Source: an uncultured virus (IMG/VR IMGVR_UViG_3300030099_005341)
Taxonomy: Duplodnaviria; Heunggongvirae; Uroviricota; Caudoviricetes
IMG/VR virus record: IMGVR_UViG_3300030099_005341
Reading direction: 5' to 3' (one strand)
Length of the DNA stretch: 64,000 nucleotides
Position numbers and translations under genes: made by a program. Shown piece by piece: positions 18,801 through 63,279 of the stretch. Below the pieces are notes generated by a model that saw nothing but the letters and a program-made list of their open reading frames with translations, made no database searches and was not told where the DNA came from. Position 1 is the first letter of the stretch. The number at the start of each line of letters is the position of its first letter.

Positions 18801-21800
18801 CAGCTGAAGGTAGTGTACCTTCTAGGTTTATAGTAACAATGTCTAAACAGATTTCTTACATAGATTATTATGGTGTGGGTGGTGTTCATGGATATTCTAC
18901 TGGTGGTATGAGGTGTCAAGGTAATGGTGTTAGAGGACAAACGCCACATCCTGGCCATACCGGTAATTATATTTCTGATGCAAAAAGTTTTAGCTGGAAA
19001 GGTAGTAATGTTACAATGGGACAAGGTGCTTACTATAGTACGCCTAATGGTGGGTTCGTTCCTGGCGTTCCATCTTTATATAGTGGGCCAAATTTTGCCG
19101 CTGCATACACGGTTCCTTGGGGTGATCAATATGTGCCAAATACTGATTTAATAAACTATCCAAATCAAAGTGGTGTTACAGGTATTACTGGTAACTCAAC
19201 AACTAGAACCAGTAACAATACTATTAGCAGTTATTCTTCTAACAGCCAAGATATAGGGCAGTTAACATTAAAAGGTGGTTATTATGACTGGAAAGCTGGT
19301 TCACCTGGTTGGATAGATTATAGCGCAAATTCTGGTGCTTCTGACACTGTGGGTGTTTACGCGGCTTTAGGTAGTACTTCTGGAACAAATGGACTTGGAT
19401 CTTCTCCACATCCTTTTTATTATGCTAACTATGATGCGGTGTATAGTTTACACAGTGGAAGCTCTTGTGATAATACACCTTGGGTTTCTAGACCTTTAGT
19501 AACAAGGCATGGTACCGCTTGGAATTATTTTACTAGTTGGGGTGGTAAATACGGTGCTAATGGTAGAGGTAAGTTTGGTAAGAGAGATAATATAAATAAC
19601 CAGTCTGGTGGAGTTTGGGATCACGCTGCTGTTTGGCCTGGTGTTGATGGACAATCGTATGTTGGAGGTACATCTAGTGGTGGTACATCTTGGAGATTTA
19701 ATAGAACTCACATGAGTTTTCTAGGTAATGGTAGTGAAAGTAATCCTGTTGGTGGACCTTGGCCTACCAACTGGGCTAGACATTTACAAATGTTTGCTAG
19801 TACCGCTAATGGATCTTCTGAAACATCACCCGCTGTTTATGAAAATATGAACTTAACGGGTCACTATCCTTGGTCGTATAACTTCCAGTTTAAAACAGCT
19901 TATATTGCTAATTTTGATACTATGCACATTAACAATATACTTGCTGGAGGTGAACACAATTATCAATATCCAAACTGGAGATCTAGATATAATGGTATTG
20001 GTGAAACTACTAGCTCTTCTGCAACAGGTAAAGTAGCTATGTACGGTAAAGACTGGAACGAAAATATAAGTATAAATAGTTGGGATAATAGTACTAGTTC
20101 AGGAACTGGTACAGAGCACTCAAGAAGCAAAATTTCTTGGGCTTACACTGGTGACGGTGCAGATAAACCTTGGGATACGCCGGGTAAACAACATATAAGA
20201 ACTTGGGGTGCTACTGGAGATGCTTATGGAGAAGATGCTGAAACACCTGTCTTTGAAGAAAAACAATACGGTGGTGGTTATATGAGAAGAAGTTCTCACC
20301 ACCCTAGCAAACGATGGTGGGAAGCTTGGTGGAACGGTAATGGTTGGACAAACGAAGACTGGGATAGTAATAGACCTTATTATAACAATGGTGGTGATAC
20401 AAAACTTCAATCAAGAAAAGAAAGACCAGATAGAAGATGGTTTATAGATCACTGTGGAGCAGCGCAAGATAAATGTGGTATTGGTGTTGGTAGAGGTAAT
20501 TCAAGACAAATGGATTTAAGTTTCGTTGGTTTTGGTACTGGTGTCGATAAAAATGATGATTGGACTTTAGCCGCTGCTTCTGGAGAACAAGCCTTTGCAG
20601 ACGCTATGGTAACACCTGGTACTCAGTTTAGATTTAGAGAAGATCCTTTTCAAATAGTATATACTATAACAAAAGGTCAAGTTAGTATAGCTCAAGATCC
20701 TGGTTATGTAGATTCTACCACTGGTAAATGGGTGGATTCAACAACTTCAAATGACGGTGAAAACCCTTATATATTAAACTATAGTTCAGATCCAGACGAT
20801 GCAGATACTTACGATATTCTTAATAGAAGACTTCGTTTACGAATAACAGTAGATAAAGAGTTCTTTGTTACGGATAATATAGAGAACGATCATAACTTGG
20901 TAAATTACCTTGGACAAAGAACTACATACAACGCTAATGCAGCATCAGCGTTACAAAGGTATCCTCAAACAATGTGGAATGGAACTTCTTACACTACATC
21001 TGGAGACAGAACTGGAGTTAACACATTAAGAGCTTGGCATCCACTTTCAAACGCGTTTAACGTTTTAGGTGGTCACAACGTTATGAATCCAGCTACTTTA
21101 TCTAAAGATCTAACATCTACAACGTATTTTGACTCTTATGGAAAGCCTAAACCTGGAGCGTTGCAAACAGATCCTACAAAACCACATTACAATCCTAGAG
21201 GTGTTACTATTGTTAGATATGATGAAACACAAAATCCTTTATCACCATTTTTAATAGCAGATAACGAAGAAGACGAGTATGGTACTAATAGAGCTATAAG
21301 AGGTTGGATACCTTGGACTGTTAAATATACAAAACCACATACTGAACCAACTGTACCTGTTGCTTCTGGTGACTGGCCAAATACATCTCAGTTTTCCCCT
21401 CATGGTAGTGAGTGGTCTTACGTGTTAACAACAGCTAATGATGTTGGTGGGACAGGTAAAAAAGAGTGGATAGACTTTGTAGACACTATAAACTTTCAAT
21501 CTTTAAGTGCTAGTTTTGGTCCAAATAGAGATCATTTTAATCAAGACCCTTGGCATTCTTATAGACTTGCTACTACTACAGGTAAGTCAACAACAGAAAC
21601 TAGCTCTACCGCTAACACTGGCGGTGGAGCAAGTGCTCCGGTTATTAATACTCCAGTTGGACAGTTTTATAACAATATTAATAGTACTACAGAATATAAT
21701 ATAACCTCCGACGATGATAGTAAAAGAGCTGTTGGCGCTGCTTCTAGTAATAACGGTGCTGCTTATTTAGGAATTAGTGGTAACTCTAAAATAGGTTTAC

Positions 21801-26035: not shown

Positions 26036-27595
26036 ATGGCGACAAATCCAGGATTAATGGGATCTTATAAACGAGCTATGCAAGCTGAAGCTGGTGGACA
26101 AAACCAAGCTGCAGAGGGTATGGCTAGTGTAGCTTCCGATATACTAAACTTTACTCAAGAACAACAAGAACTAGAGTCTCGTAAAGTTCGTGAAAAACTT
26201 CTTAAAGATAAAAAGGAAAAAGAAAGATTAGCTAAAGATAAGGCATTAGACGATAATCTTGATAGATTAGAAGCAGCTGGTTTGTCAGCTCAAATGGGTA
26301 CCGCTTTCATGGAACCTTATTATGACTATATTACAGAACAAAGAAACGCTCAATATGAAGCTTTAACAAATGGAGATAAAAAACGAGCAACAGATCACTT
26401 GTCTAGAGTAAAAGTTTTAGCACAAACAATGCAACAAATAAAAGATGCAAAACAAGAATTTTTAGAAAACACCAGAGGTGGTAGTGGTGATACTAGTCAA
26501 TTATCAAAAGGTATATCACAACAACAATTATCTTTTGCTAAACAATTATATTCACAAGATCCAAACTTATTTGTTTTCTTTGCTGGACAAGATCATCTCG
26601 AAGAAGGTGCTCTTGATTACTATGGTGATCCATTAAAGCCAGATCAGCAGTATGCTATAGTAGAAGATTTTAAAGGTGAAGAGCATTATATAAATGTTTT
26701 AGATGGTAATAAAAATATGTTCATACAAGACGATAAAGCTGCTTTAACTTTTCAAGAGTTTAGACAAGATCAATTTACAAAATCATCTGCAGCTAAAGCA
26801 AATAATAGTTCAGCTGAAATAAATGTTGGTATGATTAAAAATAAAATGGACGACTTGTTTGAAAGTAGAGATACAGTAATGTCATTTGCTAATGATATGG
26901 TTTTAGAATCTGATGGTGGTACTTTTAAACAACATTTATATGCTCAAGTTGATAAAATGATAATGCTTGGTGATAACGGTATGGGTGTTTTTGATGAAAA
27001 TGGAGAGTTGAGAGAAAGAGGTATTGATGAAAGAAAAGAAATACCAGATCCACAAAATAAAGGTAAACTAATACCAAATCCTAATTATGGTCAACTAGAG
27101 AACCATTGGGCTGATAGTTTATCTGACGAAGATCGTATCGCTATAACAGAAGCCGTATGTAATCCTGATCATGAAAGTTTTAATTACGAAACTACTAAAA
27201 AACTAGTACACGAGTACTATACTAAAAAAATATATAAAGCTTGGTGGAAAGGTCAAGGATTTGATGAAGATAAAATAGACCAGATATATAACGATGCTTA
27301 TAAGATTATGTCTGAAGGTAAAGATAAAGATCTTAGAACAGCTATAATAAATGGTGAGCAATATGTTGAAGATAATGGTAGAATGGTACCTGTTGAGACA
27401 CCACCAGAAGAAATAAACCAAGATTACGCTGAAGATACTATGACTGTTGAGGAAGCTCAAAAGATACTAGACGAAGCAGAACCTTACAGTAGAGAAACTA
27501 TAGAAAAAGCTACAAAAGTTTTATCAGGTAAAAAGAACGCTGATGATGATGATAAGACTTACGCTGTTAATTATAAAGGTTATCAAATAAAATAA
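26036..27595 (+). CDS. Putative internal virion/ejection protein
   Basis: Helical 519 aa ORF between cargo-like genes. Confidence 0.5.
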   Translation: MATNPGLMGSYKRAMQAEAGGQNQAAEGMASVASDILNFTQEQQELESRKVREKLLKDKKEKERLAKDKALDDNLDRLEAAGLSAQMGTAFMEPYYDYITEQRNAQYEALTNGDKKRATDHLSRVKVLAQTMQQIKDAKQEFLENTRGGSGDTSQLSKGISQQQLSFAKQLYSQDPNLFVFFAGQDHLEEGALDYYGDPLKPDQQYAIVEDFKGEEHYINVLDGNKNMFIQDDKAALTFQEFRQDQFTKSSAAKANNSSAEINVGMIKNKMDDLFESRDTVMSFANDMVLESDGGTFKQHLYAQVDKMIMLGDNGMGVFDENGELRERGIDERKEIPDPQNKGKLIPNPNYGQLENHWADSLSDEDRIAITEAVCNPDHESFNYETTKKLVHEYYTKKIYKAWWKGQGFDEDKIDQIYNDAYKIMSEGKDKDLRTAIINGEQYVEDNGRMVPVETPPEEINQDYAEDTMTVEEAQKILDEAEPYSRETIEKATKVLSGKKNADDDDKTYAVNYKGYQIK

Positions 27596-27599
27596 AATT

Positions 27600-30500
27600 A
27601 TGGCAGAATTAAAACCAGAGCAGAAACAAGCCTTAGAGAGAATGATCGATGAGCTTGAAGCTAAGAACGTTGATAGAGACGAAATCAACAGACAGCTTAG
27701 AGCACGTGTCGACGAGTATAAATCAATGAATGAGGTTGAAGAGAAAAGAGAAAAGAAAAAAGATCCAACTAACTTTGGTGAGTTCTTTTCAGATAGTATA
27801 GTTAACATTATGAAACCTACACCGCCGGGAAAGCCGGCAGGCTCCGTGGAAACAACGGAAGCGGAGCCAAATGCTTCGGCTTCCGAGTCGGAAGATACTC
27901 AATCGGAATCTTCTTTTATAGGTCTTAGTAATGACATGTTAAACATGTACCCACCTGTAGCGATACAAGATGGTACAAGTCTACATCCATACACTAAAGA
28001 ACCAAACTGGTATGAAAGACAAGAAATACAAAAAAGAATATACGACGACAAGAGAGATATGGCTGGTGATAACACCACTGAGCTAACAGATGAAGAAACA
28101 AACACAACTGTTATAGATGGCGTTGCTCGTAAAGAAGAGTCTTGGTTACGTGGACCTTTTAAAGATAAGTATACTTATACGTATACTAAAGACCACCCTA
28201 ATTACAAAGGGGAAGGACAAGAGGTAAGTGAACAAGATATAAATAAATATGAAGCAGCAAGCTGGGTTAATAGTCTTGATAAAAAAGCAGAAGCTATAGC
28301 TAGTCAGTATCATGACTCTGAAATGCAAGAGAAGATAAAGAAAAACCCACTAGCTTGGGTTAATGGTGATGTAAGAGCTAAAGATGTTGAAAACCACGAG
28401 CTACAACAGTCTTTAATAAAACAAAGTAAAGCAGAAAATCAAGATATAGATATTAACCAAGATGGCGTTTATAACGTTGAAGACGCTAGGATACAAGGTG
28501 AAAAAGATCTTAGAACAGAGGCTGTTGCTTTTGAAAAATACTTAAAAGAAGCTGAAGGTGTATTACAAAAGAAATTTCAAGATCAGTTTTACAAAGAGTA
28601 TGACGATCAAATTAGTGTTGCTCAGAAAAAAGTACAAACTAAATACGCAGAAATTTTTAATGCTCAATATGGTGAAGAGTTAGATAAAATAAAAAAAGAA
28701 ATAGTTAAACAGCACGAGATAGATAGTGAAAAAGGTTACTACGCTGAGTGGATGACGGGTGAAGATATAAGTGAACTGTTAGATAAAAAATACAGAAAAG
28801 CAACAGAAAACTTACACTTAGAGTTTGAAAAGATATATGCTAAAGAGTGGGAGGCAGATCTTAATAAAGAAATAGAACAGTTAGGTGATGAATTTGCTGA
28901 AAAGAATAACCAGTGGTTTACAGACTCTTTTGACAGAATGTTAAAACAATTTACTCCACCCGGCACTTTAATACCAACAACAGAGTATGATGCTGTTGAT
29001 AAAAAGTTTGATGAAGCTGGTATTATAGGTTTACCTGAGAGAGCTAGAATGAACGCTCTTAATAATGCTTGGTCTCAAGTTTCTGAAGCTTTATCGCCTA
29101 GCTTAACATCAAACCAGTTAAAAGCTAGAAAAGCAGAGTTCTACGGTAGATACATGAGAAAGTGGTCTATGAATAGCGCTGGTGAGTATAGTCAGTTTTT
29201 CTTTAAAAACATGGCTGAAACAATGGGTGATAAAATAAAACCATTACAAAGTCAAGCTAAAAAAGATATGGTTGCTTTAAGAGATACTGATCCTGAACTT
29301 TTTAAAGCAGTAAAAGAAGCAATGAATATTATAAATATTCCTACGTACGATCAAAAAGACATAACTCTCAAAAAGCAAAAAGCAGAAGCTCAAGAGATTT
29401 TAGACAAAAATCCAGAGATGTATAAAAGTTTAAAAGGTATACTGGATAGAATGTCAACCTTAGAAAGAGCTAATAACTGGAGGATTGGTATTATAAACAA
29501 TCCAGAGATTAAAGAAAGCTATTTTAAAATGTTGGGTAAGGGCTTTGGGCATGCTAACGAAACAGATGGTAATATAATAAAGTATTTACCTTTTTTAGCT
29601 GGGTTAGATGCTATAGGTGAGGCTGTTGACATGTACGAGCTAGCAAAGAAAAATCCTAAAGACTGGACAACTGAGGAAAGAATAGCAGCACAGTTATTCG
29701 CTTGGAAGTCTTCTTCAGATGAAATATCAGCTAACATATCGTCTGGTTACAGACATGGTAAAATGCTACAAGAGGCCGCTCCTTATATAGGTGAGTTTGT
29801 AGCTTCTGGACCTGTTTTTGCTGGTACAAGAGCTGTGGCTAAAAAAGCCCTAACAAAAGCTATTATGAACAAGGCAGATGACATGATGATAAACCTGTAT
29901 AAGCAAGGTTTATACAAAGGTCTAACTGAAGCTGGTAAAAAACAGTTTGTTAAAAACTCTAGAAAAGCTATATTAAAAAATAGAGCTATAAATGGTTTAT
30001 CATTTTTTGTAGGTACAATAGCACAGACAACAGCTAACCCACAGCATTACATAGGTAAAACTATAGAAAACATGACACCTGAATTGCAAATGCAATTTAC
30101 ACTAGAAGGTGATGAGTACTTAAAACTATTAGATGAGGGTAGATACAACGAGCTAGGACCAGAACCTACATTTGTAGAAGGAACTGAGTTAAGCGGTTGG
30201 GATGCTGCTTTTCAAGGCTTTGGTTTAACGTGGGCTGAGTTTGCAACAGAAAGACTAGGAGAGGCGGTTCCTATGTTGGGTAAACATATTGGAGAAGAGT
30301 TACTTGTTGATGGTACTTGGTTAAAAAAATTATACTTAGGTTGGTATCAAAAGAAAAACAAAATGACACCTGGTATGTTGAGATCAACTATAAAGAAAAC
30401 TGGTTGGAACGGTATACTAGGGGAAAACTTTGAAGAGTGGATTAACCTACCTTTACAAAATATAATAACAGGACAACCATTGTTACAAGGTTTTGATGGT

Positions 30501-33500
30501 GAGTTTCTAGCAGACACATTTGCTGTTACAGGTATAATGGCTGGTGCATTTACAGGTTTAGGTGGTTCTATAAATTTAATGAGTGGTAACTTTAACAATA
30601 ATCCTGTTTATAATGTTAACGACATGTTCTTTGATAATAAAGAAGAACAAAAGAAAGAGATTTTAAGAAGAATAAAAACTGGTGAAACAGCTGATCTAAA
30701 TGTTGATATACAAAATGACAACGCTGCGTTTTTTGATATACTAGAAATTCTTAATGAAGAAGGTTTAGCTGATAAGTTAACCAACAACAAAAGAATACAA
30801 CAACAAAGAGAAGAAAGACACAGAGCACAAGAGCTTGAGATATTAAGAAGAGCAAACTCTGGTGATAGACAAAAGCTTGACACTATTGATAAAAAATTAG
30901 AAGAGCTAAACAACAGTGCCGCAGATATAAAAAACACTGAAACACCTGACAATAGTCAACTAGAAAAAATAAATATAGAAAAAGCTAAACTTGAAGTTGA
31001 AAAGGAAAAGATAATAAGACCTTACGCCGAAGCTATGCATAAGGAAAACTGGAATGCTGGTGTTGACAAATTACACAGTATGTATGGTCAATTACAGCCT
31101 GGAAGAAAGCTAAATGTAAGAAAGTTAAACACAGACGAAATAAACGCTTTAAAAGAAGAGTCTATATTAAATCAAAAGAAATATAAAAAAGAAACTAGTG
31201 TTGATGGTAAGGTTTCTTACAGAAACAAAGATGGTGCATTAGTATCACCAGAAGAAGCAAATAAACTTAACAACGAAATACAAGAAGCACAGGCTGGTAC
31301 TACCTATGGTATGTTTGAAGCTAGTAACAACGAGTTGATATTAAACATAGATCAAGCTGGAACTGCCAAAGGAGTTTCTGCGGTAGAGCATGAGTTTTTA
31401 CACGCTGTATTAAATAACATAATGGATAACGATCCAGCTGTACAACATGTAATAGGTCAAGCAATGATGCAGCACTTATTAAGATTAGACCCCGCGCAGG
31501 TAATAAGTAGTGATTTTGCAAAAAGATTAGCTGGTTACCAAGCTGATGCTATGGCTCAAGGTACTCAAGCAGGGTGGGGTAGAGCTCAAGAAGAGGTTAT
31601 AACACTATACGTAGACGCTATTGCTAATGGTGATATAAAAATGGAAGAAGGACCAATGACACATCTTGGTGATATTATGAGAAGAGCCTTTAGACATTTT
31701 GGTATTAATATGAAGTGGAATGATGGCGCGTCGGTTTATAACTGGTTAAAAGATTTTCGTAAGTATTATAAGAAAGGCAAATTTTCTAGTGGTTTTATAA
31801 AAACTCAAGACATGCAAGGTCGTTTTAAAAGTAAAGCAATATTGGGTACAGATCTTTTTAAGCAAGCACAACAAACAGAAATGGATATGCGTGCTATGGA
31901 AGAAGGTGAACAACAAGCTGCTAAATCTGAAGACGCTTATGGTATAAATAAAAAGTATGATGAAAAAGGTGTTGCGGGCTACGAAGATATAATTAAAATA
32001 TATCAAGGTCAAAAAGAAGTAGAAAACGAATATGGTGAAAAATCCTGGACAAGAGATGAGCGTGGTTCAATGATAGATAAAATAGTTAATAGATATGAGA
32101 AAAGAGCTAGGTTTGATACTTATAAAAACGACTTAAGAAAAGCTTTAGCATACGATCCTACGTATGGTGTTTTAGGTTTAATATTAAAGTATAACCAAGA
32201 GGATAATCCTGGTGTACCATTAAATAAATATATAAACAAATACTTAGGTAGAAAAGCTATAGACTTAGCAAATCAAATACTAGGTAAAGATCAAGCCGGT
32301 GATTTTAGAAGTAACGTAGATGATATAGTTGGACTACAAACTAATGAGACAGGTGCTGATGTATTACTAGATCAAAAGCTACAACAAGAATACGAGGGTG
32401 AGATAGATGTACCTAATCTTAGAAAAGAATTAATATTTAGAAATGAAAAAGGAGAACCTGTAAAAGGTATACCTGAAGATCTTATATTAATAGTAAAAGA
32501 TAAAGTTAAAAGAATAGTTAAAAGAGCTGGTTCACCTACAGATCCTAAATTTAAAAAGAAATTACAAGACGAGTTTAAAAACGAACTGTTTAAAGAAATT
32601 AAAAACAGAATGGGTGCTGGTAATAACTATAATATTTTTATAGAAGATAACTGGTCTACTATAAATAAGTTTATACCTACATCAACTTGGGTATCTATAG
32701 AGAGAATGGTTCCTGCAGCAGAAAGAAAGTTTACTTTTATCAAAACTGCAAATATGAATCCTACTCAAACACAAGATGCTATTGACAAAGGATTAATAAG
32801 TCCTATGACAAGTTTAACAGCAGGTAATGATTTACACGCTAAAAAGAAACTTAAGAAAGGAGATATGTTAGATTGGTACTTGAACGTACCTGCTAACACT
32901 AAAGGTGAAAGAAAAACTAGGTTAGCTAAAGAAATAGCTACAGAGATGGCGTTTGATGTTACTATGGAAACGTTAAAGCTTCCTGATGTTATTAAGTTTA
33001 GAAAAGAAGTTACTGACTTAAAAGGTTGGGAAATTGTTAATGATGAAGCAGCGTTGATAGCTAAACAAATAGATAGAGACCCTAATTACAAGTTTAGCAT
33101 GGATTTCGTTGACTCTGGTCAGTTTTTAACAGAAGTTAATAGTTTGGTACCTATATTAAGAGAAAAAGGTTCTAATAGTCAGGAATACCAAGATGCTGTA
33201 GACTTATTAAATCCATTTACAAAAGCATTTATGGAGGAACTTTTAGAAAAGAATCCACATTTAGCTAATAATCCTGACGGATACTTAAATGCTATAAAAG
33301 CTTCTACAAATTTACCTAAAGAATTAATTGATAAAGTTAGAAGTAGAGACTTAAATCTTTACAAAGGTAAATCTTTAGTAGAGTCTGTTGCTAATGAATA
33401 CGCTAAGAACGTAGATAGAATAGCTAAGAAAATAGATCTAGACATGTTATTGAATCTTAGATCTTCATTAGATATATTTAATTTTCATTATAGAGGTTTA

Positions 33501-36500
33501 GATGCTGCTAAACTTAAAAAGAGCACAAATAAACCTGGTAAGTATAGAGGTTTGTTTGATAGTATTATAGAAAATAAATACAAAGATAAAAATTTAAACT
33601 TTAATCCAGGTAATATTCTAGCTATGAATAAAGATGCTGCTTGGTTTAATAGCATGATAAATCCTATATTTGCTTTAGATGGTACTGTAGAACAAAAACT
33701 AGAAATGCTAGCTAAAGTAAGAGATCAACTTGTTGAAATAAACAAAGCAAACATAGACGCTTTTATATACTTTGAAAATAAGTTGGCTGAAAACATAGGT
33801 GGTAAAAATGGTATAACACATGAGTTTATTATACAACTACACCAAGCACAAACTAATTTAGCTTTTGGTTTGAGAGCTCTTAGTAGTATAGATTATTTAT
33901 ATTTAGAAGAAGGTGTACAACTGTTACCAAAAGCTTCTAGCTCTCTTAGTAGAAAGCAAGCTGCTAACAATATGGGTAGAAAATCCATTACTGATAAAGA
34001 ATGGGTAAACTCTCCTGAATATAAAAAGCAGTTAGAAATATATGGTAAAACAAATAACTTTACAAGCGAATATAACAAAGCTAAAAAACAAGCTAAAAAA
34101 GAAGGTAAGAACAATGAGCAAGCGGAGTTGTTTGCGCTTAAAAAAGCTATTAAAAAGTTAACAATAAAAGGTGAGCACCTGGGTGCTAACGCTATAACTA
34201 TGGCTGAAATTAGCGAGCTGCTTATAACTGGTAAAGCTAATCCAGAATCTATAAGAGAAGTTATAAAAGATCATAAACAAATGTTTGGACCAACATGGGT
34301 TTCAGATTTAATGGACTCTAAGGTTGATGAAAATGGAAAGCCTAAATATGGTGGAAGAACAAATCCTGAAGGAGAGTTAAGAATATTAAAAACATTACCG
34401 TCTAATATACAGAATAATATATATCATATATCAGGTGTACCTGCTGTAGATCACTTAGCAGAAGCTGGAGCTATGAGAGCTATTGAAAGCTTGTTAGGTA
34501 GTGTTAATGAATTAGAAAATACTAAGAAGTTAGTTAAACTTTATCAATCTAAAGATCCTGCTATAAAACAAAAAGGTATTAGTATATTAGATTTTGACGA
34601 CACATTAGCTAGATCTAAATCTGGAGTTAGATATACTATGCCAAATCCAACTGGTGAACCACAGCCTGGTAGAAAAGTTATATTTTTAGCTGGTGGAGCT
34701 GGTAGTGGTAAATCAAATGTTGTTAGAAAACTTGGTTTAGAAGAACAAGGTTTTAAAATAGTAAACTCTGATATAGCTTTAGAATGGTTAAAGAAAAACC
34801 ACGGTTTACCTGAAGACATGAGAGACTTAACACCTAAACAATTATCAACGTTAGGTAAGTTAACTTGGGAGGCTAGACAAATAGCCGCAAGAAAAATGAT
34901 GAAGTTTCAAGGTAATGGTGATGGTATAATAGTTGATGGAACAGGTGGCTCATTAAAAAATATGCAAAAGCAAGTCGATGAGTTTAAAGCTAAAGGTTAC
35001 GATGTGCAAATGGTGTTTGTTGAAACATCTCTTGAAACAGCATTGCAAAGAAACCGTGATAGAAAAGAACGTTCATTAAGAGATGGTATTGTAAAACGAA
35101 ATCATGAAAAGGTACAAGGTAATAAAGAAGCGTTTAAAGAATTATTTGGTAATAATTTTGCAGAAGTTAAAACAGACAAACTAGGTTTAGATGATCCAAT
35201 GCCTAACAAACTTGTTAAGAAGTTAGATAAGTTTACAAAAGGTTATATAAAAGGTAGAATAGACGCTACTGGTTTTGCTCAACAAGGTGCAGATCTATTA
35301 GCTAAAGGAGCTGAGTTTGATTTTTCAGAGTTTAACTTAGTTGTAGAAGGTTCTAAAGGACCATTGTTTGAAAAAGCTCAAAAGCTTGCAGAAAAGTATG
35401 GTACTAAAGATATGTTTATATTGACAGCTAGGCCTGCTGAATCACAAAAAGCTATATACGAGTTTATGAAATCTCAAGGTTTAGAAATACCTTTAAAAAA
35501 TATAACTGGCTTAGCTAACTCTACATCTGAAGCAAAAGCATTATGGGTTGCTGAAAAGATAGGTGAAGGGTATAATGATATATACTTTGCTGACGACCAT
35601 TTAGAAAACGTGCAAGCTGTTAAAAATATGGTTGATCAGTTTGATGTTAAAGGTAAAGTGCAGCAAGCTAAATACAAAGAGAGTAAAGATTATAGTGGTG
35701 ATTTTAATAATATACTAGAAGAGTCAACTGGTATGGGTGCTCAGCTAACTTTTTCTGAAGCTGTTGCACAACTTAGAGGTTCTAAAATTGGTAACTGGAG
35801 ATTTTTTGTACCACCATCTGCCGATGATTTTAAAGGTTTGTTATATTACTTTTTAACAAAAGGTAAAAAAGGTGATGAACAAATGGCTTGGTTTCAAAAA
35901 ACTTTATTAGATCCTTTCAACAGAGCTATGAGAGATTTAAACTCTGCTAAACAATCTATAACTTCAGATTATAAATTACTTAGAAAACAAATGCCTGGTG
36001 TTGTTAAAAACTTAAATAACATCGTGGAAGGTACAGATTTTACTTATGACCAAGCTATTAGAGTTTATTTATGGGCTAAAAATGATATTGAAATACCAGG
36101 TATATCAAATAGAGATACAAAAACTTTAGTCAATACTATAGAGAACGATCAACAACTAAAAACATTTGCTGACTTTTTAGGTAAGTTAACAAAACAACCA
36201 GAAGGTTACGTGCAACCAAGTGAATATTGGACAGTTACAAATATAGGTGCTGACTTAGAGTCTATAACCTCTAACGAAGGTAGAGATTTTTACTTACAAG
36301 AGTTTAAAGAAAACAGACGAAAGATATTTGGCGAATGGTATAGAGGTAGACTTATAGGGCCTAACATGAATAAAATAGAAGCTCTTTATGGTAGTAGATA
36401 TAGAGAAGCTTTAGAAGATATACTATGGCGTATGGAAAATGGAACCAATAGAGGTTTCGGTAGTAATCGTTTAACAAATTCATTTAGTAATTGGGTTAAC

Positions 36501-38018
36501 AACTCTGTTGGTGCAATAATGTTCTTTAATGCTAGATCTGCTATATTACAGACTTTATCAACTGTAAACTTTATAAACTGGAGTGACAATAATATATTAA
36601 AAGCTGGTTTAGCTTTTGCTAATCAACCGCAGTTTTGGAAAGACTTTAGTTATATATTTAACTCTGACATGTTAAAGCAAAGAAGAGGTGGTCAACAACG
36701 TGGTATTAACGAGGCTGAACTAGCTGAAGCTGTAAAAGGTAAAAAGAATAAAGCTCAAGCAGCATTAAAATGGTTGTTAACTAAAGGTTTTTTACCTACA
36801 CAAATAGCAGATAGTTTTGCTATTGCTTCTGGTGGTGCTACGTTTTATAGAAATAGAATTAAAACTTATTTAAAGAAAGGTTTAAGTCAAAAAGAAGCAG
36901 AGCAAAAAGCATTTGATGACTTTCAAGCTATTGCAGAGGAAACACAACAGTCAGCTAGACCTGATTTCATATCACAACAACAGGCTTCTCCATTAGGTAG
37001 ATTTATATTAGCATTCCAAAATACACCTATGCAGTATACTCGTTTAACTAAAAAAGCTGCATTAGATTTAATAAACGGTAGAGGTGATTGGAAAACAAAC
37101 GTTTCTAAAATGATGTACTATGGAGCTTTACAGAATTTAATATTCGCTAGTTTACAGTCTGCTTTATTTGCTTTAATGTTTGATGATTTTGAAGAAGAAG
37201 ATGAAAAAACAGAAAAAAGATATATTAGAATAGCAAACACAATGCTTGACTCTATATTAAGAGGTACTGGTGTAGGTGGTGCTGTAGCATCAACTTTAAA
37301 AAATATGATAATAGAGTTTGAAGCTCAAGAATCTAAAGATTGGGGTAGTGATCATGCTTACACCTTAATAGCTATGGCTAATTTATCACCACCTATCGGT
37401 TCTAAGCTTAGAAAGTTGTACTCTGGTATACAGTCTTATAGGTTTAACAAGGATGTAATACCAAGAAGAGGTTTAACACTTGATAATCCAATGTGGCAAG
37501 TTGTTGGTAATGTAACTTCTGCTCTAACAAACTTACCTTTAGATAGAGTTGTTAATAAGGCTAACAACGTTGCTGTAGCAATAGATCAAGAAATGGATAC
37601 ATGGCAAAGAGTTGCGTTGATATTAGGTTGGAACAAATGGGATCTTGGTATTAAAGACGAAGATATTGAAAAAATTAAAGCAACAATAAAAGAAGAAAAG
37701 AAAGAAGCTTCAAGAGCAAAACAAAAAGAAAAAAGAAGAAAAAAACAAGAAGAAAGAAAAAAGAATATCACACCTGATGATAGAGATGGCGATGGTAAAA
37801 AGGAGGTTCGTTGTAATGCTAAAACATCTAGCGGTGCAAGATGTAAAAACGTTACTGAATATTTAGAGCATGGTTTATGTGGTACACACTTAAGATATAT
37901 AAAAGAACCTGGTGTGTATGTTAGTAATGGTGTTTCTTATAACGTTGGAGCTAGTAATTTAAATAGATTTAGAAAAGAACATCCTAATGCTAGGCTAAAA
38001 AAGAAAGTTAACAAGTGA
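27600..38018 (+). CDS. Giant polyvalent virion protein (zincin, HAD phosphatase with nested P-loop kinase, C-terminal CCCH finger)
   Basis: HEFLH at ~31389; DFDDTL ~34590; GGAGSGKS ~34693; LTARP ~35421; FADDH ~35586; C-x10-C-x9-C-x2-H ~37812. Confidence 0.8.
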   Translation: MAELKPEQKQALERMIDELEAKNVDRDEINRQLRARVDEYKSMNEVEEKREKKKDPTNFGEFFSDSIVNIMKPTPPGKPAGSVETTEAEPNASASESEDTQSESSFIGLSNDMLNMYPPVAIQDGTSLHPYTKEPNWYERQEIQKRIYDDKRDMAGDNTTELTDEETNTTVIDGVARKEESWLRGPFKDKYTYTYTKDHPNYKGEGQEVSEQDINKYEAASWVNSLDKKAEAIASQYHDSEMQEKIKKNPLAWVNGDVRAKDVENHELQQSLIKQSKAENQDIDINQDGVYNVEDARIQGEKDLRTEAVAFEKYLKEAEGVLQKKFQDQFYKEYDDQISVAQKKVQTKYAEIFNAQYGEELDKIKKEIVKQHEIDSEKGYYAEWMTGEDISELLDKKYRKATENLHLEFEKIYAKEWEADLNKEIEQLGDEFAEKNNQWFTDSFDRMLKQFTPPGTLIPTTEYDAVDKKFDEAGIIGLPERARMNALNNAWSQVSEALSPSLTSNQLKARKAEFYGRYMRKWSMNSAGEYSQFFFKNMAETMGDKIKPLQSQAKKDMVALRDTDPELFKAVKEAMNIINIPTYDQKDITLKKQKAEAQEILDKNPEMYKSLKGILDRMSTLERANNWRIGIINNPEIKESYFKMLGKGFGHANETDGNIIKYLPFLAGLDAIGEAVDMYELAKKNPKDWTTEERIAAQLFAWKSSSDEISANISSGYRHGKMLQEAAPYIGEFVASGPVFAGTRAVAKKALTKAIMNKADDMMINLYKQGLYKGLTEAGKKQFVKNSRKAILKNRAINGLSFFVGTIAQTTANPQHYIGKTIENMTPELQMQFTLEGDEYLKLLDEGRYNELGPEPTFVEGTELSGWDAAFQGFGLTWAEFATERLGEAVPMLGKHIGEELLVDGTWLKKLYLGWYQKKNKMTPGMLRSTIKKTGWNGILGENFEEWINLPLQNIITGQPLLQGFDGEFLADTFAVTGIMAGAFTGLGGSINLMSGNFNNNPVYNVNDMFFDNKEEQKKEILRRIKTGETADLNVDIQNDNAAFFDILEILNEEGLADKLTNNKRIQQQREERHRAQELEILRRANSGDRQKLDTIDKKLEELNNSAADIKNTETPDNSQLEKINIEKAKLEVEKEKIIRPYAEAMHKENWNAGVDKLHSMYGQLQPGRKLNVRKLNTDEINALKEESILNQKKYKKETSVDGKVSYRNKDGALVSPEEANKLNNEIQEAQAGTTYGMFEASNNELILNIDQAGTAKGVSAVEHEFLHAVLNNIMDNDPAVQHVIGQAMMQHLLRLDPAQVISSDFAKRLAGYQADAMAQGTQAGWGRAQEEVITLYVDAIANGDIKMEEGPMTHLGDIMRRAFRHFGINMKWNDGASVYNWLKDFRKYYKKGKFSSGFIKTQDMQGRFKSKAILGTDLFKQAQQTEMDMRAMEEGEQQAAKSEDAYGINKKYDEKGVAGYEDIIKIYQGQKEVENEYGEKSWTRDERGSMIDKIVNRYEKRARFDTYKNDLRKALAYDPTYGVLGLILKYNQEDNPGVPLNKYINKYLGRKAIDLANQILGKDQAGDFRSNVDDIVGLQTNETGADVLLDQKLQQEYEGEIDVPNLRKELIFRNEKGEPVKGIPEDLILIVKDKVKRIVKRAGSPTDPKFKKKLQDEFKNELFKEIKNRMGAGNNYNIFIEDNWSTINKFIPTSTWVSIERMVPAAERKFTFIKTANMNPTQTQDAIDKGLISPMTSLTAGNDLHAKKKLKKGDMLDWYLNVPANTKGERKTRLAKEIATEMAFDVTMETLKLPDVIKFRKEVTDLKGWEIVNDEAALIAKQIDRDPNYKFSMDFVDSGQFLTEVNSLVPILREKGSNSQEYQDAVDLLNPFTKAFMEELLEKNPHLANNPDGYLNAIKASTNLPKELIDKVRSRDLNLYKGKSLVESVANEYAKNVDRIAKKIDLDMLLNLRSSLDIFNFHYRGLDAAKLKKSTNKPGKYRGLFDSIIENKYKDKNLNFNPGNILAMNKDAAWFNSMINPIFALDGTVEQKLEMLAKVRDQLVEINKANIDAFIYFENKLAENIGGKNGITHEFIIQLHQAQTNLAFGLRALSSIDYLYLEEGVQLLPKASSSLSRKQAANNMGRKSITDKEWVNSPEYKKQLEIYGKTNNFTSEYNKAKKQAKKEGKNNEQAELFALKKAIKKLTIKGEHLGANAITMAEISELLITGKANPESIREVIKDHKQMFGPTWVSDLMDSKVDENGKPKYGGRTNPEGELRILKTLPSNIQNNIYHISGVPAVDHLAEAGAMRAIESLLGSVNELENTKKLVKLYQSKDPAIKQKGISILDFDDTLARSKSGVRYTMPNPTGEPQPGRKVIFLAGGAGSGKSNVVRKLGLEEQGFKIVNSDIALEWLKKNHGLPEDMRDLTPKQLSTLGKLTWEARQIAARKMMKFQGNGDGIIVDGTGGSLKNMQKQVDEFKAKGYDVQMVFVETSLETALQRNRDRKERSLRDGIVKRNHEKVQGNKEAFKELFGNNFAEVKTDKLGLDDPMPNKLVKKLDKFTKGYIKGRIDATGFAQQGADLLAKGAEFDFSEFNLVVEGSKGPLFEKAQKLAEKYGTKDMFILTARPAESQKAIYEFMKSQGLEIPLKNITGLANSTSEAKALWVAEKIGEGYNDIYFADDHLENVQAVKNMVDQFDVKGKVQQAKYKESKDYSGDFNNILEESTGMGAQLTFSEAVAQLRGSKIGNWRFFVPPSADDFKGLLYYFLTKGKKGDEQMAWFQKTLLDPFNRAMRDLNSAKQSITSDYKLLRKQMPGVVKNLNNIVEGTDFTYDQAIRVYLWAKNDIEIPGISNRDTKTLVNTIENDQQLKTFADFLGKLTKQPEGYVQPSEYWTVTNIGADLESITSNEGRDFYLQEFKENRRKIFGEWYRGRLIGPNMNKIEALYGSRYREALEDILWRMENGTNRGFGSNRLTNSFSNWVNNSVGAIMFFNARSAILQTLSTVNFINWSDNNILKAGLAFANQPQFWKDFSYIFNSDMLKQRRGGQQRGINEAELAEAVKGKKNKAQAALKWLLTKGFLPTQIADSFAIASGGATFYRNRIKTYLKKGLSQKEAEQKAFDDFQAIAEETQQSARPDFISQQQASPLGRFILAFQNTPMQYTRLTKKAALDLINGRGDWKTNVSKMMYYGALQNLIFASLQSALFALMFDDFEEEDEKTEKRYIRIANTMLDSILRGTGVGGAVASTLKNMIIEFEAQESKDWGSDHAYTLIAMANLSPPIGSKLRKLYSGIQSYRFNKDVIPRRGLTLDNPMWQVVGNVTSALTNLPLDRVVNKANNVAVAIDQEMDTWQRVALILGWNKWDLGIKDEDIEKIKATIKEEKKEASRAKQKEKRRKKQEERKKNITPDDRDGDGKKEVRCNAKTSSGARCKNVTEYLEHGLCGTHLRYIKEPGVYVSNGVSYNVGASNLNRFRKEHPNARLKKKVNK
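27827..27868 (+). other. Candidate programmed -1 ribosomal frameshift signal
   Basis: In-frame G GGA AAG heptamer, 6-nt spacer, 8-bp stem GGCTCCGT/GCGGAGCC. Confidence 0.65.
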
Positions 38019-38029
38019 TTTACAGATAT

Positions 38030-39079
38030 ATGAATAGATTAATAATACTACTAATAATAATTTTAACATCTTGTACTACGCCTAAAGAATGTTGTTCACA
38101 AGACTTGAATAAAATATTTAAGTTTTCTACGTTTTATGCTGCTGCAAGCGGAGGTACTTCTATATCAGATATAGATGTATACTCTGTTACTAATGGATTA
38201 GAAACTTTTACAGTACAAACGCCGTTTGATTATAATTTAGCTTTTGGTATACGTAAAATAGCTAGATTTGGTTATGAAAACAAAGCTCAAACATTTTACG
38301 ATGGAACTGAAACATCATGGTCTGATGGCGCTAGTATTGGTAAGGTTAGTGGTCTTGAGTTTTTGTTTGAGGTAGATATGAAACGTCAAGAAGGTATAGA
38401 GTATCTTGATCAACATCACTTTATAAGATATGTAGCTGATAATTATATTTTAAAAGGAGAGTATTTACAAGATGGCTTTGCTGATATAGAATACTTTGAA
38501 ACTTCTCAAAGGTATAGATATGATTACAAAGGTGTTTCGTTTAACGTTGGTATAGCGCAAAGAATGTCGGAGCCTTATGGTTATGATCCTTTAGAAGAGT
38601 GGAGACTTGATAATGGTGATATACATTATACTTATCTAGCAATACAAGAGGGTTATAATATAGATGTATATAATTCTATATATACAAATCCAAATGGTGA
38701 CGTAGTTGCTACTAGTTCTGAAGTTTGGGAAGAGGTAGTTATACCAGAAGTATTAGCTAATTATGTTGGTAAAAAAAGAAATGAGTTAGATAGAAAACTA
38801 CAACAATCATTGATAATAGGTTTTGACTACTATTATTACAAAAAAAGTTTTTGGCTACATTCTTGGGCTAATTTAATGCCTTGGCACTATGATGATGGTG
38901 GTACTTTTTCATATCACAATTACAACAACGGTGAACAATGGTATGATTATTCTGGTGGTTTAATATTTGGTTATAAATATAGTAAACACCTTGGTATGTT
39001 TGTAGAAGGTAAATATAATAAATACTGGAATCGTGAGTGGTACGATTTCAAATGTGGAATTAATTACGTAATATTTTAA
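38030..39079 (+). CDS. Exported outer-membrane beta-barrel-like protein
   Basis: Signal peptide (possible lipobox LTSC), aromatic alternating strands, C-terminal GINYVIF ending in Phe. Confidence 0.6.
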   Translation: MNRLIILLIIILTSCTTPKECCSQDLNKIFKFSTFYAAASGGTSISDIDVYSVTNGLETFTVQTPFDYNLAFGIRKIARFGYENKAQTFYDGTETSWSDGASIGKVSGLEFLFEVDMKRQEGIEYLDQHHFIRYVADNYILKGEYLQDGFADIEYFETSQRYRYDYKGVSFNVGIAQRMSEPYGYDPLEEWRLDNGDIHYTYLAIQEGYNIDVYNSIYTNPNGDVVATSSEVWEEVVIPEVLANYVGKKRNELDRKLQQSLIIGFDYYYYKKSFWLHSWANLMPWHYDDGGTFSYHNYNNGEQWYDYSGGLIFGYKYSKHLGMFVEGKYNKYWNREWYDFKCGINYVIF

Positions 39080-39687: not shown

Positions 39688-40235
39688 TGGCTAATTTATT
39701 TAAAAAATTTGATATAAAAAAGCTAAAAGGTAAAAAACCTCCTAGCGATAATTCTTTTGATACGGATCAAGAGATAAAACATATTGCTAAAATACCTATA
39801 AACAAAAAGTTTATAAAAGACAAAGATGATGTTTATGGTTCTTTTAAAAAGACAGCTAAAGAAAATAACGTGGAGTTCCCAAGCAAACAAGTTGGTAGAT
39901 TAATAGATGATTCAAGAGAGGTAATAAGTAAATTAAAAATGCACTTTAACAGGCCAAGACCAAAGGTTTTAGCTAAAAAAAGAGGTATGAAACTAGAAAA
40001 CGTCATGCTCAAATCAATGGACACACCTTCTTACCCTTCAGGTCACTCAACACAAGGTATACTTGTTGCTAAATATATGTGTGACATGTATCCAAGTAAG
40101 TCAAAACAGTTTATGAAAACAGGAAAAGATATATCTAATAGTAGATTATCAGCTAGGTGTCATTATCCTTCTGATAGTAAATTTGGAGAAAAGCTAGGTG
40201 AAGAAATGTACAAACATGTAAAAAATAAAATATAA
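39687..40235 (+). CDS. PAP2-superfamily phosphatase/haloperoxidase
   Basis: K-x6-RP (KMHFNRPRP), PSGH, SR-x5-H-x3-D (SRLSARCHYPSD). Confidence 0.85.
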   Translation: MANLFKKFDIKKLKGKKPPSDNSFDTDQEIKHIAKIPINKKFIKDKDDVYGSFKKTAKENNVEFPSKQVGRLIDDSREVISKLKMHFNRPRPKVLAKKRGMKLENVMLKSMDTPSYPSGHSTQGILVAKYMCDMYPSKSKQFMKTGKDISNSRLSARCHYPSDSKFGEKLGEEMYKHVKNKI

Positions 40236-44898: not shown

Positions 44899-46773
44899 TT
44901 AAAGGCCTGTTATTTCGCAAGATCCGCCGGCACAGGCCAATTCGCCTGACAGATCAGTGTTGTCAGTTTCTTCAACAACATTTAACAAATTTATATTATG
45001 TAGTTTTGAAACTAATTTATCAAACTCTTTTTTAGTTATATCTTCAAAAGGAGCTTGAGTGTACGTACCACCGTCGTAAGGTAGTACAGATAAACCATTA
45101 TAACAATCTCTGTTATCCCACATCCATTTACCAGCTTTATCCCATTCATCTGCTTTTAAACTAATTGTCGCGGACACATTGTGGGTGTTGGATCCTTTCC
45201 TGTGACCAGGTTTAACCCATTCGGTAGCAACTTTTTTTACTCGTTTTAATAAGTCAAATGCAGACTCAGTTCTTAATATAGAACCTTTTGGTGCTGATTG
45301 TGGTATCTCGATAACAGCGGTGTCATGTGGTCTAAAATATTCATCTTCCACAAGTTCAGGGTGGTTTTGTTTTAAATACGTATATATAGCCTCGTTTTTA
45401 CCTACACGTAATCTTCTTATGTAGTAATCGTTGTGCCATGCATGTATACCTGAAGATGTACCCAGCACTAACGACGTGGTCCCTGCTGGTTTTACACAAG
45501 TTGTACGTGCTGCTTTGTTTATACCTATCAATTTTGAAACCCGGGTGTTTTCTCGTTTTACGATACTTGCAGCGGCCTTCATATCCAGCGGGAGCACAGC
45601 GGCACTCCCTATCCCTGTCATGGACACACCTATAAGCGCGTCTCGCTCTGTTGTTTCTTGCCATATCTCTCTTAAATAATGAAACTCTGTATATCCAGCT
45701 TGTAACGTACCTATAAAAGCAGCAGCTTTTACTCTAGCATTAAAGTCATCTTGATCTTCTAGATCACTGACATTTACCTCGCATAAATTACAAAATTGAT
45801 ACGGACGTAAAGCTATTTCACAACAAGGGTTAGTTCCCCAGTCTTTATCGTGGTTAAAATATATACCAGGTTCACCAGAACCAGATAACTCTATACGTTT
45901 CCACAGATCCATAAAAAACTCTTTTGTTATTTTATGTCTCATTAATACGGCAGAGTTATTAGCTCTACCTCTTTGTGGGTTTGTTTCCCACCAACTACCT
46001 GACTTACATGAAATCATTTCTTCATCATACGCTGAAAATAGCGATATAAGAGCGGCTCTTCTAATTCCTCCCGCGAGGACAGCATCCGCAATGTGGCAGA
46101 CAATATCATGTACTTCGAGTGTTGAAAGTTTTGTACCATCTTCTTTAGCATCTAATATTCCTTTAATTTTTAATAAACATTCTTTTAGTGGTTGTGGACC
46201 CGGAGCTTTCCCTCCTGAGGTCACAAGCCTAGCTCCCTTTGGTCTAATATCAGAATAATCAAATTTGATCTTAGATGATCTCTTAGAGCCCAAATAAGAC
46301 TTGATTAATACTTTTACAGCGTCAGACCAACCTTCAATACTATCACCAATAACAAATCTTCTTGTTCTTCCTTTAAATGGTTTTGTTATTTCAGGTAATT
46401 TATTTACATGATGGTTCTGAACAGAGTAACCAACGCCACAGCCAGATAAGAGTAAAAACATACACTCACTAAAGCTATCAGTGTGATCAATAGGTAGGTA
46501 ACTACAGTTGTATAATCTATTTGGACTGATTTCAATCGGTTTACCGCTAAACTGCAAGCTTCGCATACTTGGTAAAACTTTTTTCTTATAAACATATCTA
46601 TAAACTTCTTCTATTTGATTATATAATTCTGGATACCTTTTTTGATGCATCTCCTTGTTTCTCGTTACTAGTTCCTCCCAAGTCTCACGTCTGTTTAACT
46701 CAGGAAGATACTTAGCATACTTCATATAGACTGTTAAGTCTGAAAGTATTTTTTTATTTATATCACTATTCAT
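44899..46773 (-). CDS. nrdJ: Class II (B12-dependent, monomeric-type) ribonucleotide reductase
   Basis: PSMRSL, LYNC, GGIRRAA, TNPCCEI, KPAGT, C-terminal ACAGGSCE; no beta subunit gene. Confidence 0.9.
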   Translation of the reverse strand: MNSDINKKILSDLTVYMKYAKYLPELNRRETWEELVTRNKEMHQKRYPELYNQIEEVYRYVYKKKVLPSMRSLQFSGKPIEISPNRLYNCSYLPIDHTDSFSECMFLLLSGCGVGYSVQNHHVNKLPEITKPFKGRTRRFVIGDSIEGWSDAVKVLIKSYLGSKRSSKIKFDYSDIRPKGARLVTSGGKAPGPQPLKECLLKIKGILDAKEDGTKLSTLEVHDIVCHIADAVLAGGIRRAALISLFSAYDEEMISCKSGSWWETNPQRGRANNSAVLMRHKITKEFFMDLWKRIELSGSGEPGIYFNHDKDWGTNPCCEIALRPYQFCNLCEVNVSDLEDQDDFNARVKAAAFIGTLQAGYTEFHYLREIWQETTERDALIGVSMTGIGSAAVLPLDMKAAASIVKRENTRVSKLIGINKAARTTCVKPAGTTSLVLGTSSGIHAWHNDYYIRRLRVGKNEAIYTYLKQNHPELVEDEYFRPHDTAVIEIPQSAPKGSILRTESAFDLLKRVKKVATEWVKPGHRKGSNTHNVSATISLKADEWDKAGKWMWDNRDCYNGLSVLPYDGGTYTQAPFEDITKKEFDKLVSKLHNINLLNVVEETDNTDLSGELACAGGSCEITGL

Positions 46774-62935: not shown

Positions 62936-63279
62936 TAAATATAATAGTAAATGTAGTAGTGTGTAGTAACTAGATAGCTAGAATAAAGTCTGAAATATCT
63001 ACAGGGTCTGGTGATTCGGACGAGGAGGGACGACCGGAAGAGAAAACGCTGTAACGTAGGACGAAACGAAAAACGAAACGGCCGGGCGCGTAAAAAGTTT
63101 TGAGTTTTCTTTTTAGTAGTGGGGCTGAGAGGAGGGGGGCAACACTTTGTCTCGATATTTATAATGTCCTAAATGTACCGGTACCTATATATAAGGGTAC
63201 CTGTTTTTAAATATTGATTTATTTGTGTGATTATAGAGAAATATAAAGTAATATTACAAAAATAAAAAAAATACAAGTC

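Follow-up and report, generated by a model that had tools for sequence, protein, structure and literature searches.

The subject of this study is a short cassette near the 5' end of a giant gene in a 64,000-nucleotide (nt) stretch of DNA from an uncultured virus of the Caudoviricetes (IMG/VR record IMGVR_UViG_3300030099_005341), the whole of which is referred to here as the window. The original prediction, made from the letters of the stretch, had placed at this site a slippery heptamer, a 6-nt spacer, an 8-base-pair (bp) stem and a 109-residue alternative product of a 3472-residue protein, and its sequence observation is correct in every detail. Codons 76-78 read CCG GGA AAG and thereby present G_GGA_AAG in the X_XXY_YYZ register; the spacer (27834-27839) leads into a hairpin, S1, whose arms GGCTCCGT (27840-47) and GCGGAGCC (27861-68) are joined by seven Watson-Crick pairs and one G-U pair; and 78 residues read in the zero frame followed by 31 in the -1 frame, up to a TAG at 27926-28, make up the 109 residues (Table 1). 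Farther downstream GCTTCCG (27879-85) is complementary to CGGAAGC (27856-62), and because two bases of the latter lie in the S1 3' arm, the second stem that is compatible with S1, termed S2, comprises 5 bp only. The frameshift interpretation offered with these observations is supported by heptamer conservation, stem covariation and conservation of the -1 peptide among relatives, and the cassette is very probably a programmed -1 ribosomal frameshift signal with a pseudoknot stimulator, which would give rise to an N-terminal isoform of 109 residues whose tail is a conserved, basic hairpin.

Table 1 Features of the cassette and of its host gene in the window
Feature	Position	Strand	Description
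Giant open reading frame (ORF)	27600-38018	+	3472 codons; zero frame, full-length product
Shared N-terminal part	27600-27833	+	Codons 1-78; helical mini-domain and Pro-rich end, common to both products
Slip site G_GGA_AAG	27827-27833	+	X_XXY_YYZ register of the zero frame
-1 frame from slip site	27827-27928	+	G, K, then 31 codons, then stop
Spacer, 6 nt	27834-27839	+	
Zero-frame linker, same bases	27834-27914	+	Codons 79-105; acidic, Ser/Thr/Glu/Ala-rich
Stem-loop S1	27840-27868	+	8 bp, 13-nt loop
Pseudoknot stem S2	27856-27885	+	Loop 27856-60 (CGGAA) with 27881-85 (TTCCG), 5 bp
-1-frame hairpin motif codons	27875-27910	+	[YF]GxxxGxxxxG plus one hydrophobic residue
TAG stop of the -1 frame	27926-27928	+	

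The patch that holds these elements had been described as GC- and CpG-rich, and the 100 nt starting at 27811 are indeed the GC-richest of the 64 kb (0.57 versus 0.334 overall; 10 CpG). Codons 73-104 include 15 of 32 that end in G or C, against 5.4 ± 2.0 expected for these amino acids at the codon usage of the window (P ~5e-5, 20,000 resamplings), so the composition is not merely a consequence of a Pro/Gly/Ala/Ser-rich linker. Rare G-ending codons within the patch (TCG, ACG) provide the first G of three invariant glycines of the -1 frame. The 42-nt stem region folds at -17.2 kcal/mol (z -2.63), and the fold of 97 nt of the region is unremarkable (z -0.99). Since 25 in-frame XXXYYYZ sites occur in the giant gene, the heptamer alone says little. 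Rfam has no family over the cassette and returned just two sub-threshold small-RNA matches, on the opposite strand at 27931-28083. The other most GC- or CpG-rich 100-nt patches of the window lie at 45521-45571, within a minus-strand ORF (44899-46773), and at 62981-63041 near the right end, with 13 CpG per 100 nt.

Slip site conservation in related giant genes

The 5' region of the gene found no match by blastn or tblastn among 50,697 phage records. A peptide-pattern scan of viral contigs (first 600 residues) gave 12 stretches, none of them confirmed, and a word-based protein search with residues 1-500 returned only the window's own cluster, whose 6 members are near-identical (1-3 differences) and uninformative. 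The nearest virus record, G001, overlaps the window at 20001-21195 only, and tblastn of residues 601-3472 against phages produced just 9 weak matches, to the kinase-like domain and in unrelated phages. A HMMER scan with residues 1-1200 gave 81 matches, nearly all of them at residues 620-1165; a collinear orthologue, P0008, is 49% identical over the C-terminal 902 residues and aligns from residue 79 on. Through P0008, and then through C-terminal alignment (80 loci), 87 loci were retrieved from viral metagenome contigs with up to 10 kb of upstream sequence included, and since all were reached by way of protein stretches well downstream, C-terminal for those 80, the relatives are unbiased for the 5' end. 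The 5' end of the giant gene is complete in 83 of the 88 loci (window included), and a -1-frame [YFW]GxxxGxxxxG falls within the first 300 codons in 36 of the 83, 29 of them distinct. An extended set comprises 52 distinct cassettes in related giant genes from viral metagenome contigs, and these are the 52 relatives to which the counts below refer. Blastn with the cassette of one relative (L100) had no match in the phage records, where a cultured phage with the cassette was not found.

Each of the 52 relatives carries an in-phase slip site at the corresponding position (GGGAAAG 12, GGAAAAG 12, AGCAAAG 10, AGTAAAG 10, GGGAAAC 3, AAAAAAA 3 and AAAAAAG 2), at least 12 and mostly 12-20 codons upstream of the -1 motif [YF]GxxxGxxFxG; in the 29-sequence set it is 12-19 codons upstream in every member, apart from one case of 30. 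The conservation of the heptamer that the original prediction had proposed to check is thus present, with GGGAAAG itself in 12 relatives and a perfect heptamer of another sequence in 8, the A_AAG part alone being kept in 32 of 52. A_AAG is the common denominator of the relatives' sites. Beyond codon 150 of 76 distinct giant genes, in-phase GGGAAAG does not occur in 213,196 codons and GGAAAAG occurs 14 times. The portions of PMC5009743 drawn on here place G_GGA_AAG among the most shift-prone heptamers in E. coli, and describe A_AAG as a minimal -1 site and non-canonical P-site codons as being used in IS1222 and Bacillus cdd. Two relatives (L007 and L008) have a run of eight adenines, with in-phase AAAAAAT, about 15 codons past their GGAAAAG site, in the -1 ORF just before the motif.

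Covariation of the two stems

An ungapped hairpin of 5-11 bp begins 4-7 nt past the slip site in 49 of the 52 relatives, and the remaining 3 have bulged stems or a mis-chosen site. The spacer before the 49 hairpins measures 6 nt in 35, 5 nt in 9, 7 nt in 3 and 4 nt in 2. Covariation of S1 was assessed over its eight pairs with 500 shuffles of a MAFFT alignment not fitted to any structure: the positions are paired in 76.3% of cells compared with 66.0 ± 1.6% when shuffled, and 33 cells are changed on both sides compared with 13 ± 3.6, values that 0 of 500 shuffles reach in either case. Sliding the partner of S1 leaves at most 50% paired. One S1 pair is seen as UA in 9 sequences, GC in 7, CG in 5, UG in 2 and AU in 1, and the relatives hold 29 distinct pairs of S1 arms. 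Covariation of the stem, also named beforehand as a check, is therefore borne out, and the 8-bp S1 of the window, after its 6-nt spacer, is a covarying candidate stimulatory structure within 5-9 nt downstream of the slip site.

The second pairing, which had been suggested as a possible pseudoknot, covaries as well. The relatives contain 31 distinct pairs of S2 strands, such as GGATGC/GCATCC, GGACCC/GGGTCC, CGGAGAC/GTCTCCG and TGGAGTC/GACTCCA, with CGGAA/TTCCG in the window, and cognate partners score 5.65 versus 4.48 when swapped (0 of 5000 permutations reach this value). A convincing S2 is not seen in a few members (L063, L116 and L121). As judged from these pairings, S1 and S2 have the predicted geometry of an H-type pseudoknot. 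The 42 nt past the sites fold at a mean of -13.0 kcal/mol versus -3.3 kcal/mol at 337 background in-phase heptamers (Mann-Whitney p = 6e-19), a difference of which part is composition. A scan that started from RNA features (in-phase NNNAAAG with a hairpin of at least 7 bp) was too permissive, with 172 mostly AU-rich matches; 16 of these matches have the motif, all at codons 31-77, and the motif occurs in 0 of 152 beyond codon 100.

Selection on the -1 reading frame

The -1 reading of the cassette is better conserved than the zero-frame reading. Over a 17-codon block in 29 sequences, the -1 frame has a BLOSUM score of 2.98 and an identity of 0.51, versus 1.08 and 0.37 for the zero frame, and in a C-terminal control block the order is the reverse (zero frame 4.43 versus -1 frame 2.11). 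With 52 sequences the scores are 2.42 for the -1 frame and 0.97 for the zero frame, and the -1 frame is open in 52 of 52, as would be expected of the conserved -1 peptide for which the original prediction had asked. Entropy by zero-frame codon position is 0.74/1.21/0.82 in the linker and 0.18/0.18/0.97 in the control, such that the base varying most in the linker is the second of the zero frame, which is the third of the -1 frame. Synonymous resampling of the zero frame gave a -1 BLOSUM score of -0.80 ± 0.11 versus 1.80 observed (codons not fixed by the regular expression), under a null that takes no account of shared ancestry.

Conservation extends to -1 residues that lie beyond the pseudoknot. 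Position 5 of the motif is I/L/F/W/V in 52 of the 52 relatives, F occupies position 9 in 51, and F/I/V is found at position 10 in 52; position 7 is K/R in 45 and position 8 is W/Y in 36. At those positions the residues of the zero frame alternate between Ser and Leu, or switch among Glu, Val and Gly. Other parts of the peptide coincide with RNA pairing. The CxC of many -1 peptides, absent in the window, is encoded by bases of the S1 3' arm and the S2 5' strand, and the S2 3' strand frequently consists of the motif's G-I codons; the conservation of the remaining motif does not appear explicable by RNA pairing. CxC was also considered as a metal site and was rejected, given this coincidence and its absence in the window and in the relatives with a ten-adenine run described next.

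Relatives with a run of ten adenines

A degenerate 32-nt motif pattern matches at least 120 viral contigs, with a rough chance expectation of ~0.02. From this motif-only scan 80 loci were fetched, 69 of them new and distinct. Among the matches listed, 68 of 69 have the motif in the -1 frame of an ORF open for at least 200 codons downstream or to the locus end, and the motif stands 42-119 codons from the upstream stop of that ORF and is followed by the -1 stop 3-15 codons later; the sites in 73 distinct loci, again among the matches listed, are GGRAAAS in 19, AGYAAAG in 10, a run of ten adenines (A10) in 28, A9 in one and A12 in one. The A10 run is exact and stands just before the motif in loci of the L122-L201 series, for example L180, L149 and L134. 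In most A10 loci only 0-7 codons separate it from the motif, too few to accommodate a pseudoknot, and the CxC stretch is missing. The fixed length of ten suggests, on sequence grounds, selection on slippage rate. In bacteria RNA polymerase slips efficiently on runs of 9 A or T, as reported in the part of PMC5009743 that concerns such runs, and the A10 relatives probably use polymerase slippage by analogy. The alternation of heptamer and A10 is the strongest argument that the fusion of mini-domain and peptide is a selected product.

The two predicted products and population data

How would one gene yield two proteins at this site? In the proposed mechanism, ribosomes passing codon 78 would meet G_GGA_AAG while the H-type pseudoknot formed by S1 and S2 sits at the mRNA entry site, and a fraction of them would slip one base back, such that GGA is re-read as GGG and AAG as AAA. 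The slipped ribosomes would read the 31 -1 codons through the unwound pseudoknot and stop at the TAG, and their product would join the helical mini-domain of the N-terminus to an aromatic, strongly basic tail, probably a beta-hairpin. Ribosomes that do not slip would make the 3472-residue protein, where these bases are read as a linker that is acidic and probably disordered. The cassette would thus set the ratio of a small to a giant protein with a common N-terminus. We infer from the sequence that slippage takes place, and the same applies to its rate.

Structure predictions are consistent with this division. In a single-sequence AlphaFold2 model of residues 1-140, helices span residues 6-21, 26-53 and 56-67, with a predicted local distance difference test (pLDDT) score of 83-97 for residues 1-50, and residues 68-110 are without secondary structure (pLDDT 45-57), for which reason the cassette, when read in the zero frame, has the look of an acidic linker that is disordered. 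Mean net charge over the span in the 52 relatives is +6.2 in the -1 frame and -3.9 in the zero frame. The window's 33-residue -1 peptide, modeled by AlphaFold2 with a 29-row alignment, forms a beta-hairpin with strands at 14-21 and 24-31, at a mean pLDDT of 64.6; the aromatic beta-like tail of the original prediction agrees with this fold, at the modest confidence of that score. Pfam matched none of 29 -1 peptides, the best look-alike of one -1 peptide in the ESM Atlas scored 0.85, below the useful range, and a predicted complex of four copies of the peptide scored 0.22 against a mark of 0.42.

At least seven unrelated types of N-terminal mini-domain, with lengths of 32-97 residues, precede the motif. 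Since these domains vary and the hairpin is conserved, the partner of the hairpin is probably common to these phages or their hosts, and our best guess is that the short protein acts as an adaptor or accessory form and binds, through its cationic hairpin, to an anionic partner that is itself conserved (for example DNA, a membrane or a virion surface). Four gene-caller proteins of 77-100 residues (P0088-P0091), each on a single contig in ENA or JGI, have a mini-domain and a basic hairpin in one frame. Indel errors at the slip site could account for them, as could a gene caller that tolerates frameshifts, or they may be genuine variants without the fusion; for two of the four, the relatives in IMG/VR show the usual -1 arrangement.

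The stretch is present in marine metagenome runs of 7 studies. In contigs of 4 DNA runs (4 studies), 27500-28300 contains 19 variant sites, none of which falls in 27711-27958, and there is no indel in the heptamer. With ~2.4 variants expected in the 102-nt cassette, seeing zero is statistically weak and compatible with extra constraint.

Alternative explanations

One hypothesis is that the cassette acts only as an attenuator, in which shifted ribosomes end early and so limit a costly protein of 3472 residues, and the sequence of the -1 peptide is irrelevant. The position of the -1 stop, 3-18 codons past the motif (median 4) in the 52 relatives, and the expense of making the giant protein favor this idea, and pseudoknot pairing explains part of the -1 conservation. 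However, the -1 residues past the pseudoknot are conserved physico-chemically at positions where the zero frame changes radically, two relatives (L035 and L038) retain the F-G-I codons although their S2 pairs elsewhere, and the A10 class keeps the same peptide motif without a pseudoknot, which makes pure attenuation improbable.

Slightly less probable again is that there is no recoding, and that the patch is an RNA or DNA element (a folding pause, a determinant of mRNA stability or a protein-binding site) of which the -1 pattern is a by-product. S1 and S2 are real covarying structures, the codon usage of the patch is unusual, and the stretch without variant sites noted above would also suit such an element. 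However, this hypothesis leaves unexplained why an in-phase slip site always stands 4-7 nt before the hairpin, why the -1 frame is always open from the site to just past the motif and why variability concentrates at the third base of the -1 frame, and the motif persists beside the A10 run without any such structure.

The least probable alternative is that the window's -1 ORF is expressed by its own initiation or by RNA-polymerase slippage, the latter being the probable route of the A10 relatives: this ORF opens 7 codons before the slip site with no ATG, GTG or TTG among them, the A run at the site is 3 nt only, and the 6-nt distance to a downstream hairpin has the geometry of slippage by the ribosome and not by the polymerase. 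Of the 52 relatives, 38 have a -1 ORF that begins 0-8 codons ahead of the site, and 47 have an A run of 3-4 nt there. Upstream of the site the -1 ORF has no ATG, GTG or TTG in 45 of 52 and no ATG in 50, and given the former count it cannot initiate by itself.

Several points weigh against programmed ribosomal frameshifting with a selected hairpin tail. The sites of 32 of the 52 relatives (GGAAAAG, AGYAAAG) are imperfect as X_XXY_YYZ, and P-site re-pairing at them would be poor; the slipperiness of AAG would depend on the tRNA-Lys set of the host. The sequence sets were partly ascertained by a pattern on the motif, shared ancestry is ignored in the synonymous resampling, and the CxC and G-I parts of the -1 peptide may be kept for RNA pairing. 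The motif of the window is the most deviant of the 52, with S in place of F at position 9, its tail model is of modest confidence, and no RNA runs are among those listed for the stretch. The cassette is absent from 47 of 83 related giant genes (for example L010-L017), many of which have similar N-terminal mini-domains, and it is therefore dispensable for the giant protein as such; it appears to behave as an optional module.

The giant gene and its setting

The giant gene is the last of a block of virion genes, with an endolysin gene downstream. The late-gene block upstream encodes the large terminase, the portal, a capsid-like protein, other virion structural proteins and a structural protein of 2829 residues. 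The capsid protein of the window is 39-47% identical to capsids of marine and freshwater phages of Flavobacteriia (Maribacter, Flavobacterium and Cellulophaga), among them 46% to that of Maribacter phage Panino; BLASTP found no similarity to the syntenic 1829-residue gene of Panino or to the gene before it.

Pfam places a Zeta_toxin/AAA_33 kinase-like domain above cut-off at residues 2356-2508 of the giant protein. An HExxH motif occurs at about residues 1250-1256 of the translation, where Pfam makes no call, and it may correspond to the zincin-like peptidase proposed for self-processing in polyvalent proteins (the relevant part of PMC5512222). No domain is assigned to the remaining regions. 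Iyer et al. 2017 proposed that the polyvalent proteins of phages and conjugative elements are packaged and injected (in the portion of PMC5512222 that treats their delivery). The giant protein may belong to this class, as far as that source describes it, and its gene stands among late virion genes; from this position and the polyvalent-like make-up we infer that it is a virion protein, packaged or injected, and the two ejection-machinery isoforms of the original prediction are a putative reading.

Two downstream genes are recorded here in their own right. An ORF at 38015-39079 starts with GTG, overlaps the stop of the giant gene and has a lipoprotein-like N-terminus (a hydrophobic stretch and then Cys), with no match in PHROGs. 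A protein of 896 residues, predicted to be secreted, is encoded at 40235-42925 and contains many Cys-bearing tandem repeats of ~33 residues (...GCTDSTxFNYxxxANxDxxSC...), again with no PHROG match.

Implications and comparison with known systems

More broadly, and only as a tentative proposal that we hold to be doubtful, the cassette could be a mobile recoding module of marine phages of Bacteroidota type that hides a functional tail within the disordered linker of giant cargo proteins. At least seven unrelated mini-domains would then be issued in two forms, fused to the giant protein or to the hairpin, with the hairpin possibly a membrane-active or DNA-binding effector, and lineages would switch between heptamer-plus-pseudoknot and A10.

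If the frameshift reading is true, a family of at least 120 members would be added to the known recoding sites, in which the same product is reached through two different slippage devices, and one stretch of DNA would offer a natural example of three codes (acidic linker, basic hairpin peptide and pseudoknot). It would also mean that gene callers have overlooked a small protein in abundant marine phages, and would open a way into the dosage or handling of giant cargo proteins in assembly or infection.

Programmed frameshifts in tailed phages are textbook knowledge for tail chaperones. We know of no frameshift that cuts short the product of a giant virion gene or polyvalent gene once the first small domain has been made, and full-text literature searches, whose coverage excluded subscription journals, returned no description of a frameshift in such giant genes. 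The word "frameshift" is absent from the main text of the polyvalent-protein paper (PMC5512222). The window gene resembles the proteins of that class in its giant, apparently multidomain make-up, its kinase-like domain, its HExxH motif and its late virion-gene position, and differs in that its sole LPD-family match, LPD14, is below the Pfam cut-off (23 versus 27 bits).

The lambda G/GT system, as far as PMC5009743 covers it, uses the same heptamer, G_GGA_AAG, to set by slippage the ratio of two proteins with a common N-terminus, and lies likewise in a late structural block. The lambda shift, however, occurs near the 3' end of its gene and extends the product, whereas the shift in the window would occur at codon 78 of 3472 and shorten it, in keeping with the inverted logic that the original prediction had claimed. 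The cassette differs further in the covarying pseudoknot that follows its site, and the giant gene is not a member of a chaperone pair between the major tail (tail-tube) gene and the tape-measure gene, nor was sequence similarity found.

A closer parallel in outcome is dnaX tau/gamma, where the shifted product is the shorter one, as would be the case here. According to the dnaX account in PMC5009743, the short product arises in E. coli by -1 frameshifting at A_AAA_AAG with a stem-loop and in Thermus thermophilus by polymerase slippage on a homopolymer run, an alternation of devices that parallels the heptamer-pseudoknot and A10 classes. Unlike the cassette, dnaX is a cellular replicase gene in which the shift lies deep within the gene and meets a stop almost at once, whereas the new frame of the cassette encodes a conserved motif of 31-49 residues. 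Insertion sequences of the IS3 family (IS911, IS1222) share -1 slippage on sites of the A_AAG type, such as G_CGA_AAG in IS1222, and downstream structures, on the evidence of their treatment in PMC5009743; they differ in that their shift fuses two ORFs into a longer, active transposase, and in that they are not virion genes of phages.

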